Assembly (NCBI RefSeq): GCF_003334765.1
Contig: NZ_QOWT01000007.1
Strand: one strand, 5' to 3'
DNA length: 64,000 bases
DNA from: Escherichia coli
GTDB lineage: Bacteria; Pseudomonadota; Gammaproteobacteria; Enterobacterales; Enterobacteriaceae
The notes under the pieces are model-generated. The model was not told the origin of the DNA. It made no database searches and saw only the letters and a program-made list of their open reading frames with translations. Within the stretch, counting starts at the first letter, position 1; each line of letters starts with the position of its first letter. This document shows, piece by piece, positions 10,885 through 13,826 of the stretch. Position numbers and translations under genes: made by a program.

Positions 10885-12381
10885 ATGGCTCACCCTCATT
10901 TATTAGCGGAAAGAATTTCCCGCCTGAGCAGTTCGTTGGAAAAGGGGCTTTATGAACGTAGCCACGCCATCCGCTTGTGTTTATTAGCGGCATTAAGTGG
11001 TGAAAGTGTGTTCCTCCTTGGCCCGCCAGGTATTGCCAAAAGTTTGATCGCCCGGCGCTTAAAATTCGCCTTTCAGAATGCCCGCGCGTTTGAATATCTG
11101 ATGACCCGCTTCTCCACGCCGGAAGAAGTTTTTGGTCCCCTTTCTATTCAGGCGCTAAAAGATGAAGGGCGCTATGAACGTTTAACCAGCGGTTACCTGC
11201 CGGAAGCAGAAATTGTCTTTCTGGATGAGATCTGGAAAGCGGGCCCGGCAATTCTTAATACCTTGCTCACCGCCATTAACGAGCGCCAGTTCCGCAACGG
11301 TGCACACGTAGAAAAAATCCCGATGCGTCTGCTGGTGGCGGCCTCCAACGAGCTGCCGGAAGCAGACAGCAGTCTGGAAGCGTTATATGACCGCATGCTG
11401 ATTCGTCTGTGGTTAGATAAAGTGCAGGATAAAGCGAATTTCCGCTCCATGCTGACCAGTCAACAGGATGAAAACGACAATCCGGTTCCTGATGCCTTGC
11501 AGGTCACAGATGAAGAATATGAACGCTGGCAGAAAGAGATTGGTGAAATTACGCTGCCCGATCATGTATTTGAGCTGATTTTTATGCTGCGCCAGCAACT
11601 GGATAAATTACCGGATGCGCCTTATGTCTCGGATCGTCGCTGGAAAAAAGCGATCCGATTATTGCAGGCCAGCGCCTTTTTTAGCGGTCGCAGTGCTGTT
11701 GCCCCGGTAGATCTCATTTTGCTGAAAGATTGCCTGTGGTATGACGCGCAAAGCCTGAATTTGATACAACAACAAATTGATGTATTGATGACCGGTCACG
11801 CCTGGCAACAGCAAGGGATGTTGACTCGCCTTGGCGCGATTGTGCAACGTCACCTGCAACTCCAGCAGCAACAAAGCGATAAAACAGCCTTAACGGTAAT
11901 TCGTCTGGGCGGCATTTTCAGCCGTCGTCAGCAGTATCAACTTCCTGTTAACGTTACTGCTTCCACTCTGACTCTACTGCTGCAAAAACCGTTAAAACTG
12001 CATGATATGGAAGTGGTTCATATCTCCTTTGAGCGTAGCGCGCTGGAACAGTGGCTGAGCAAAGGTGGTGAAATTCGCGGTAAACTGAACGGTATCGGCT
12101 TTGCCCAGAAACTGAATCTGGAAGTTGATAGCGCCCAACATCTTGTCGTTCGCGATGTAAGTTTACAAGGCAGTACGCTGGCACTTCCCGGTTCATCGGC
12201 TGAAGGTCTGCCTGGTGAAATAAAACAACAACTGGAAGAGCTTGAAAGCGACTGGCGCAAGCAACACGCTTTATTCAGCGAACAGCAAAAATGTCTGTTT
12301 ATCCCTGGCGACTGGTTAGGTCGCATTGAAGCCAGCCTACAGGATGTCGGTGCACAGATTCGCCAGGCACAACAATGCTAA
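10885..12381 (+). CDS. ravA: MoxR-family AAA+ ATPase RavA
   Basis: ORF track 10861..12381; start placed at [14 protein letters not shown] (498 aa); Walker [11 protein letters not shown]. Confidence 0.9.
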
Positions 12382-13826
12382 CGCTGGATACGCTTAATGT
12401 GATGCTGGCCGTCAGCGAAGAGGGATTGATCGAAGAGATGATCATCGCACTGCTGGCCTCACCGCAGCTGGCGGTCTTCTTTGAAAAATTCCCACGCCTG
12501 AAGGCGGCAATCACTGATGATGTTCCCCGCTGGCGTGAAGCGCTGCGCAGTCGGCTGAAAGATGCCCGAGTCCCGCCGGAACTCACCGAAGAGGTGATGT
12601 GCTATCAGCAAAGCCAGCTCCTCTCCACGCCACAGTTTATTGTGCAGCTACCACAGATCCTGGACTTACTGCATCGTCTGAATTCTCCATGGGCAGAACA
12701 AGCCCGACAGTTGGTTGATGCTAACAGCACGATCACTTCAGCGTTACACACGCTTTTTCTCCAGCGTTGGCGTTTAAGTCTGATCGTGCAAGCAACGACG
12801 TTAAATCAACAGCTATTAGAAGAAGAACGCGAACAACTGTTGAGTGAAGTTCAGGAACGCATGACGCTGAGCGGACAACTTGAACCGATTCTCGCAGATA
12901 ACAATACTGCAGCTGGTCGTCTGTGGGATATGAGCGCCGGTCAGCTTAAACGTGGCGACTATCAGTTGATTGTGAAATACGGTGAATTTCTTAACGAACA
13001 TCCGGAACTGAAACGCCTGGCAGAGCAGCTGGGGCGTTCTCGGGAAGCCAAATCAATACCGCGCAACGATGCGCAGATGGAAACCTTCCGCACCATGGTG
13101 CGCGAACCGGCGACGGTTCCTGAGCAGGTTGATGGTCTGCAACAAAGCGATGATATTTTACGTCTCCTGCCGCCAGAACTGGCGACACTAGGGATAACGG
13201 AACTGGAGTATGAGTTTTACCGTCGGCTGGTGGAAAAACAGTTGCTCACCTATCGCCTGCACGGTGAGTCGTGGCGTGAAAAAGTGATCGAACGTCCGGT
13301 GGTACATAAAGATTACGATGAACAGCCGCGCGGGCCGTTTATTGTCTGTGTGGATACTTCCGGCTCAATGGGCGGCTTTAATGAACAGTGTGCGAAAGCG
13401 TTCTGCCTGGCCTTGATGCGCATTGCTCTCGCAGAAAACCGGCGCTGCTATATTATGCTATTTTCCACCGAGATCGTCCGTTATGAGCTTTCAGGCCCAC
13501 AAGGCATCGAACAAGCAATCCGTTTTTTAAGCCAGCAGTTTCGTGGCGGCACCGATCTTGCCAGTTGTTTTCGCGCCATTATGGAACGCTTGCAAAGCAG
13601 GGAATGGTTTGATGCCGATGCGGTGGTGATTTCTGATTTTATCGCTCAGCGGTTGCCTGACGACGTGACGAGTAAAGTGAAAGAGCTGCAGCGGGTACAT
13701 CAGCATCGCTTTCATGCCGTGGCGATGTCGGCACACGGCAAACCCGGCATCATGCGCATTTTCGATCATATCTGGCGCTTTGATACCGGGATGCGAAGCC
13801 GCCTGCTCAGACGCTGGCGGCGATAA
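12375..13826 (+). CDS. viaA: VWA-domain protein ViaA
   Basis: ORF track 483 aa; C-terminal VWA domain with MIDAS-like DTSGSM; overlaps the ravA stop by 7 nt. Confidence 0.9.

Follow-up and report, generated by a model that had tools for sequence, protein, structure and literature searches.

Genomic location and gene identity

Two overlapping genes, ravA and viaA, lie side by side on the plus strand of the window, by which we mean the whole 64,000-nucleotide stretch of Escherichia coli DNA analysed here. All features described below are on this strand. The upstream gene, ravA (10885..12381), encodes a MoxR-family AAA+ ATPase of 498 amino acids plus stop, and viaA (12375..13826) encodes a partner protein that carries a VWA domain and stimulates RavA, with 483 amino acids plus stop. 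Both the six-frame open reading frame list and the raw sequence place the ATG of ravA at 10885 and its TAA at 12379-12381, and the ATG of viaA at 12375 and its TAA at 13824-13826. NCBIfam returned one match per protein, each to an equivalog model: RavA scored 993 bits with NF010054 ('ATPase RavA'; cut-off 681) over residues 1-498 of 498, and ViaA scored 878 bits with NF008230 ('ATPase RavA stimulator ViaA'; cut-off 500) over residues 1-483.

The window covers the E. coli chromosome around oriC and corresponds to the reverse complement of positions 3,877,978-3,941,977 of strain MG1655, with nine substitutions and no gaps. Given nine SNPs over 64 kb, the source strain is a close K-12 relative rather than MG1655 itself. 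The genes annotated at the collinear position in MG1655 are ravA (b3746) and viaA (b3745), so that the gene names given in the initial annotation are borne out both by this annotation and by the two equivalog matches. The pair sits between kup and asnA, with asnC, mioC, and oriC adjacent, exactly as in MG1655, and within the pair itself a single nucleotide, at window position 13001, differs from that strain. The feature is almost certainly the chromosomal ravA-viaA operon of E. coli, which is already known and well studied. The HMM search proposed in the initial annotation was run, and its Pfam and NCBIfam matches confirmed the assignment of a MoxR AAA+ protein and a VWA protein; gene identity, domains, and overlap are thus demonstrated in this analysis. 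The locus has already been annotated, structurally characterised, and made the subject of six or more dedicated papers, and nothing new was learned about the genome.

Domain structure of RavA

RavA is a clade 7 AAA+ protein of the MoxR family and forms a hexamer (PMC6987120). The protein encoded in the window matched the E. coli RavA in PDB entries 3NBX, 6Q7L, and 6SZA with 100% identity over residues 1-498. Pfam placed the AAA+ core at residues 11-206, on the basis of matches to bpMoxR (PF20030, 2.1e-56) and AAA_5 (9e-28), followed by an AAA_lid_8 domain at residues 227-298 (1e-21). The LdcI-binding LARA domain (PF20265, 2e-39) occupies residues 335-436 (11887..12192) and is identical to the LARA fragments of PDB entries 4UPF and 5FL2, and an ATPase_RavA_C domain (PF12592, 2e-23) takes up residues 444-497 near the C-terminus.

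The Walker A motif, or P-loop, which the initial annotation had read as GPPGIAKS, is present in the translation at residues 46-53 (11020..11043), with K52 as the catalytic lysine; a K52Q mutant of RavA was ATPase-dead and did not complement (PMC3893208). A Walker B motif, IVFLDEI, can be read from the translation at residues 110-116 (11212..11232) and includes D114 and E115. In cryo-EM structures of RavA, residues A51, K52, and S53 touch ADP and D114 coordinates the nucleotide, and the active site of the hexamer is completed by the arginine finger R170 and a trans-acting sensor 2, R251, contributed by the neighbouring protomer (PMC6987120). The RavA of the window carries all of these active-site residues (A51, K52, S53, D114, R170, and R251).

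Domain structure of ViaA

ViaA's N-terminal domain (NTV, residues 1-191, 12375..12947) has an all-helical 'VAN' fold, with limits as published (PMC10585395), and was 100% identical to PDB entry 7UGC. It is followed by the middle domain (residues 192-311, 12948..13307), which stimulates the RavA ATPase (PMC10585395). The limits of the VWA domain have been given as residues 312-483 (PMC10585395), and the Pfam matches to VWA_CoxE (5.8e-10) and VWA_2 (5.5e-8) covered residues 320-457 of it (13332..13745). ViaA has been described as having a characteristic MIDAS motif (PMC9489729). In the translation this motif opens with D327-x-S329-x-S331 (13353..13367), within the sequence DTSGSM that had been noticed as MIDAS-like in the initial annotation and that occupies residues 327-332 (13353-13370). 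The D327-T-S329-G-S331 stretch is kept in four other genera. Candidates for the remaining MIDAS residues are T393 (in GGTD) and D421 (in VISDF), which were assigned by eye and stand at the usual spacing. The protein ends in an amphipathic helix, residues 473-483 (13791..13823), in which R476 and R479 are both present in the translation and to which a lipid-binding function has been ascribed (PMC9489729).

Gene junction and probable translational coupling

The two genes share the seven nucleotides ATGCTAA at 12375..12381, read in different frames, so that the viaA ATG falls within the final ravA codons and stop; this is the 7-nt overlap that had been reported in the initial annotation. The viaA ATG is preceded, 7 nt upstream, by a weak AGG that resembles a Shine-Dalgarno sequence. 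A consensus scan found no terminator-like site at the ravA/viaA junction itself. A terminator between the genes had been named beforehand as an observation that would speak against the pair being an operon, and the nearest stem proved to be a marginal one of 5 bp, located 86 nt inside viaA. In all, plus-strand terminator-like stems of 5-6 bp were found inside viaA at 12461, 12740, 13544, and 13613. The regional count of nine such sites, compared with a mean of 4.6 (sd 2.6) in shuffled sequences, lies within about 1.7 sd and is not clearly above expectation. Between 10500 and 14300, the consensus scan also gave no sigma-70-like promoter on the plus strand.

The RNA spanning the junction (12325-12425) had a minimum free energy of -22 kcal/mol, compared with -27.95 (sd 3.23) in shuffled sequences (z = +1.84). 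With less structure in the junction RNA than in the shuffles, the viaA start is not buried in a hairpin, and folding of 12325-12425 revealed no hairpin occluding this start, as the classical coupling mechanism would have it. Co-transcription of ravA and viaA is stated in PMC3893208, which cites Snider et al. 2006 for it, and both proteins are made from a plasmid in which ravA-viaA sits behind the native ravA promoter (PMC3893208). RavA and ViaA have been estimated at about 350 and 90 molecules per cell, respectively (PMC3893208). ViaA is therefore some 4-fold scarcer than RavA, which implies that any coupling would be partial.

The 3.2-kb ravA-viaA locus was found in 5423 of 5426 complete E. 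coli genomes, in every case on the chromosome and with at least 95% identity, and a 61-mer across the junction was found in 5417 of the 5426. The comparison between genera covered ViaA homologues with 76-87% identity. The gene order kup-ravA-viaA-asnA-asnC-mioC is kept in Citrobacter, Klebsiella, Cronobacter, and Buttiauxella, as is an overlap of the ravA stop with the viaA ATG, which measures 7 nt in Citrobacter and Cronobacter, 4 nt in Klebsiella, and 1 nt in Buttiauxella. The overlap thus persists across genera although the junction sequence differs, and the survival of this arrangement where the sequence has changed speaks for translational coupling of viaA to ravA, which we regard as a reasonable inference. 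The shared strand, the overlap, the lack of a terminator at the junction, and the conservation all fit a two-gene operon in which viaA may be translationally coupled to ravA.

Promoter region

The divergent intergenic region between kup and ravA (10663..10884) contains the native ravA promoter, which Wong et al. took as the 206 bp directly upstream of ravA (PMC3893208). Expression of ravA-viaA is sigma-S dependent under aerobic conditions (PMC3893208), and control by Fnr has also been reported (PMC9973319). By our own reading of the sequence, TCTATACT at 10834-10841, 44 nt upstream of the ATG, is a candidate -10 element of the sigma-S type. The sigma-70 consensus scan gave no plus-strand site upstream of ravA, which fits a sigma-S/Fnr-dependent promoter and does not locate it. 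For Fnr, we searched the whole window for TTGAT-N4-ATCAA with up to three mismatches; the search was uninformative, with 344 matches against 257 expected. The only such site in the promoter region was a three-mismatch match at 10772-10785, and a two-mismatch match at 10642-10655 lies within the first kup codons.

The ViaA Q209H allele

The single difference from MG1655 within the pair, T in place of G at window position 13001, changes residue 209 in the middle domain of ViaA from glutamine to histidine. This substitution is the sole local peculiarity of the locus and a minority allele. The exact 61-mer with the T allele occurred in 107 of 5391 E. coli genomes. MG1655 has Gln209, and Citrobacter, Klebsiella, Cronobacter, and Buttiauxella all keep it, within the motif x-Q-P-E-L. 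Because the ViaA of the window carries Q209H in its ATPase-stimulating domain, the published data on K-12 ViaA apply to it by inference only. The conservation of the glutamine and its position in the domain that binds RavA and stimulates its ATPase are reasons to consider that the substitution could be functional. It is nonetheless improbable that Q209H, carried by no more than about 2% of the E. coli sequenced, would be a natural functional variant that alters RavA stimulation and, thereby, anaerobic aminoglycoside tolerance or persistence.

Function and proposed mechanism

What is stated here on ATPase activity, interactions, and phenotypes comes from the literature on an identical RavA and a ViaA with one residue changed. 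On its own, the middle domain of ViaA raises the ATPase activity of RavA about 3-fold, acting via the triple-helical bundle of RavA (PMC10585395). Membrane localisation has been reported for RavA-ViaA; RavA binds phosphatidylglycerol, the C-terminal helix of ViaA (R476, R479) binds phosphatidic acid and cardiolipin, and lipid-binding mutants lose the sensitisation to gentamicin seen under fumarate respiration (PMC9489729). This sensitisation requires the proton motive force (PMC9973319). Binding of RavA to LdcI through the LARA domain relieves the inhibition of LdcI by ppGpp (PMC9489729, PMC10585395).

The direct substrate of RavA-ViaA is contested in the literature, with fumarate reductase, Complex I, and anionic lipid microdomains all having been put forward. 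Bhandari et al. reported that ViaA binds FrdA directly and inhibits fumarate reductase (Frd), with suppression of persistence, and observed no lipid binding by the LARA domain (PMC10585395). Felix et al., on the other hand, detected no direct interaction of RavA-ViaA with purified FrdA or NuoEFG (PMC9489729), and El Khoury et al., as cited in PMC10585395, saw no modulation of Frd activity. The remark in the initial annotation that the substrates of MoxR-VWA pairs are incompletely defined agrees with the literature (PMC3893208, PMC9489729, PMC10585395, PMC9973319). The question belongs to the field and is not raised by this window. The pair is of medical relevance, as a determinant of how aminoglycosides kill and of persistence under anaerobiosis. 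The Q209H allele of ViaA, an IS4 insertion in the promoter region (78 bp upstream of ravA in the strains that carry it), and a RavA-ViaA fusion in Salmonella could offer cheap probes of the substrate question.

In the mechanism that we propose, ravA and viaA would be transcribed together from a promoter upstream of ravA, reportedly sigma-S- and Fnr-dependent, and translation of viaA very probably begins at the ATG overlapping the ravA stop, through coupling or re-initiation. The RavA hexamer would act with ViaA as its adaptor, the latter made up of a helical 'VAN' domain, a flexible middle domain, and a VWA/MIDAS domain that carries a basic lipid-binding helix. Most probably, the two proteins form a low-abundance, ATP-driven remodelling module at the inner membrane, to which ViaA would target it. 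[quoted passage not shown] In a separate role, RavA binds LdcI through the LARA domain in a cage that shields LdcI from inhibition by ppGpp.

Alternative explanations

The operon reading would fail if viaA were expressed independently, from a promoter of its own inside ravA or behind a terminator between the genes, with the overlap reflecting mere genome compaction. The weak plus-strand terminator-like stems at 12461-12475 and 12740-12754, both inside viaA, and the roughly 4-fold difference between the levels of RavA and ViaA (PMC3893208) would be in keeping with such independence. These stems, however, measure only 5 bp, within a regional count that lies about 1.7 sd from the shuffle mean; the plus strand offers no sigma-70-like promoter in the interval scanned; the plasmid with the native promoter expresses both proteins from what is described as an operon (PMC3893208); and the stop/start overlap is conserved across genera with differing junction sequences. 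We consider independent expression of viaA very unlikely. Still further from the evidence is the reading of the pair as a MoxR-vWA-beta-propeller ternary conflict or defence system, the chance of which we put close to nil. It draws on the fact that bpMoxR is the top Pfam family for residues 11-206 of RavA, but this match does not make the pair a ternary system, because no propeller gene is adjacent, E. coli and four other genera having kup and asnA as the neighbours, and because PADLOC gave no meaningful match, with none for ViaA and only sub-threshold noise from the AAA core of RavA (E about 0.003). The PADLOC result also leaves a defence role unsupported. The locus is, moreover, part of the core genome and never on plasmids, and RavA carries the LARA and C-terminal domains specific to it. 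With its third component missing, the ternary system is effectively refuted as a candidate.

A more serious competitor to a remodelling module that acts at membrane lipids is a chaperone that inserts metal cofactors or Fe-S clusters into Nuo and Frd and does not act on membrane lipids, which we regard as unlikely but worth keeping in mind. It would work in the manner of NorQ/NorD or CbbQ/CbbO, with the VWA MIDAS docking to an acidic patch on its target and a 'finger' of the VWA placed in the AAA+ pore. The complete DxSxS of ViaA, with plausible T393 and D421, is compatible with such docking, and the work on NorQD proposes a common binding mode for MoxR/VWA pairs that includes RavA/ViaA (PMC9976466). 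Wong et al. linked the pair to Fe-S assembly genes and to an interaction with Nuo (PMC3893208), and binding of FrdA by the C-terminal part of ViaA (CTV) has been reported (PMC10585395). Direct binding to NuoEFG and FrdA was, however, not reproduced by bio-layer interferometry, Vibrio cholerae shows the same aminoglycoside phenotype despite having no Nuo, and point mutations in lipid binding abolish sensitisation (PMC9489729). The reported effect of RavA-ViaA on Frd, moreover, is inhibition and not activation (PMC9489729, PMC10585395).

Comparison with related systems

The closest known counterpart is the ravA-viaA locus of E. coli K-12 MG1655 itself, which has an identical RavA, the same 7-nt overlap, and the same neighbours, and which differs only in lacking the Q209H substitution of ViaA. 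The MoxR-vWA-beta-propeller ternary systems resemble the pair in that the AAA+ core of RavA scores best on PF20030 and in that a vWA partner is encoded next to it. Unlike them, ravA-viaA lacks a propeller component, does not lie in a defence-island context, and has no match in PADLOC.

[quoted passage not shown] The ATPases differ in architecture, since RavA has triple-helix, LARA, and C-terminal domains whereas NorQ is a single AAA+ module without them (PMC9976466), and the N-terminal VAN fold of ViaA has no known relatives (PMC10585395). The client of NorQD is defined (insertion of FeB into cNOR), in contrast to the disputed client of RavA-ViaA. What unites NorQ/NorD and CbbQ/CbbO with RavA-ViaA is that all have been proposed to act as ATP-driven remodellers of a specific client (PMC9976466).

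Promoter region and boundaries of ravA-viaA

A candidate promoter element for ravA (10885-12381, + strand) was found in the intergenic region that separates this gene from the divergent kup. The sequence TCTATACT at 10834-10841, 44 nt upstream of the start codon of ravA, matches the consensus of a sigma-S-type extended -10 and was missed by a sigma-70 scan; we consider it a candidate for the sigma-S-dependent ravA promoter reported in the literature. The same intergenic region is the target of a natural insertion in strains SCPM-O-B-9504 and SCPM-O-B-12142, which carry a 1426-bp IS4 element 78 bp before the ATG of ravA (446-1871 of the retrieved E. 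coli locus L004), with a 12-bp target duplication that corresponds to 10796-10807 of the window. The putative -10 element lies immediately downstream of the insertion point, and the rest of the ravA-viaA locus in these two strains is 100% identical. The insertion probably changes the promoter activity of both ravA-viaA and kup. On the kup (-) strand, a terminator-like hairpin, GTGCATACTGTGCGC, followed by the T-run TTTTTTG, was located at 10720-10735, within the kup leader or promoter region and approximately 60 nt before the start codon of this gene.

At the other end of the locus, the stop codon of viaA (13824-13826) is separated by a gap of just 4 nt from that of the convergent asnA (13831-13833, - strand), a spacing that leaves no room between the genes for a terminator, and the viaA and asnA transcripts must each terminate within the opposite gene. 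The corresponding gap is likewise 2-4 nt in four other genera.

A possible RavA-ViaA fusion in Salmonella

On a contig of Salmonella enterica serovar Infantis, a single 785-AA ORF (2201-4558 of the retrieved locus L009) joins residues 1-314 of RavA, comprising the AAA+ module, to residues 8-473 of ViaA, the triple-helix, LARA, and C-terminal part of RavA being deleted. This ORF was found on 2 contigs; it is either a fusion of the two proteins that exists in nature or an artefact of assembly or deletion.

Other landmarks and comparison with MG1655

The replication origin oriC (16003-16234; 3,925,744-3,925,975 in MG1655) was placed between mioC and mnmG, approximately 2.2 kb downstream of viaA. 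Rfam matches at the gathering threshold, all on the - strand, identified the sRNA STnc410 (26537-26694, 188 bits), AsdA, the antisense RNA of the dnaA mRNA (58759-58839, 102 bits), and a 16S rRNA gene (rrsC) truncated by the window edge, of which the 5' end (1-170) is present.

Within viaA, the G of MG1655 is replaced by T at position 13001 (codon 209), giving ViaA Q209H in the middle domain, which stimulates the RavA ATPase. Glutamine is kept at this residue in Citrobacter, Klebsiella, Cronobacter, and Buttiauxella, and the exact 61-mer carrying the T allele occurred in just 107 of 5391 E. coli genomes. Eight more single-base differences from MG1655 (3330, 4667, 5126, 19289, 19821, 32069, 39153, and 53111) and no indels were detected over the 64-kb window; as judged from these differences, the strain is very closely related to K-12 but distinct from MG1655.
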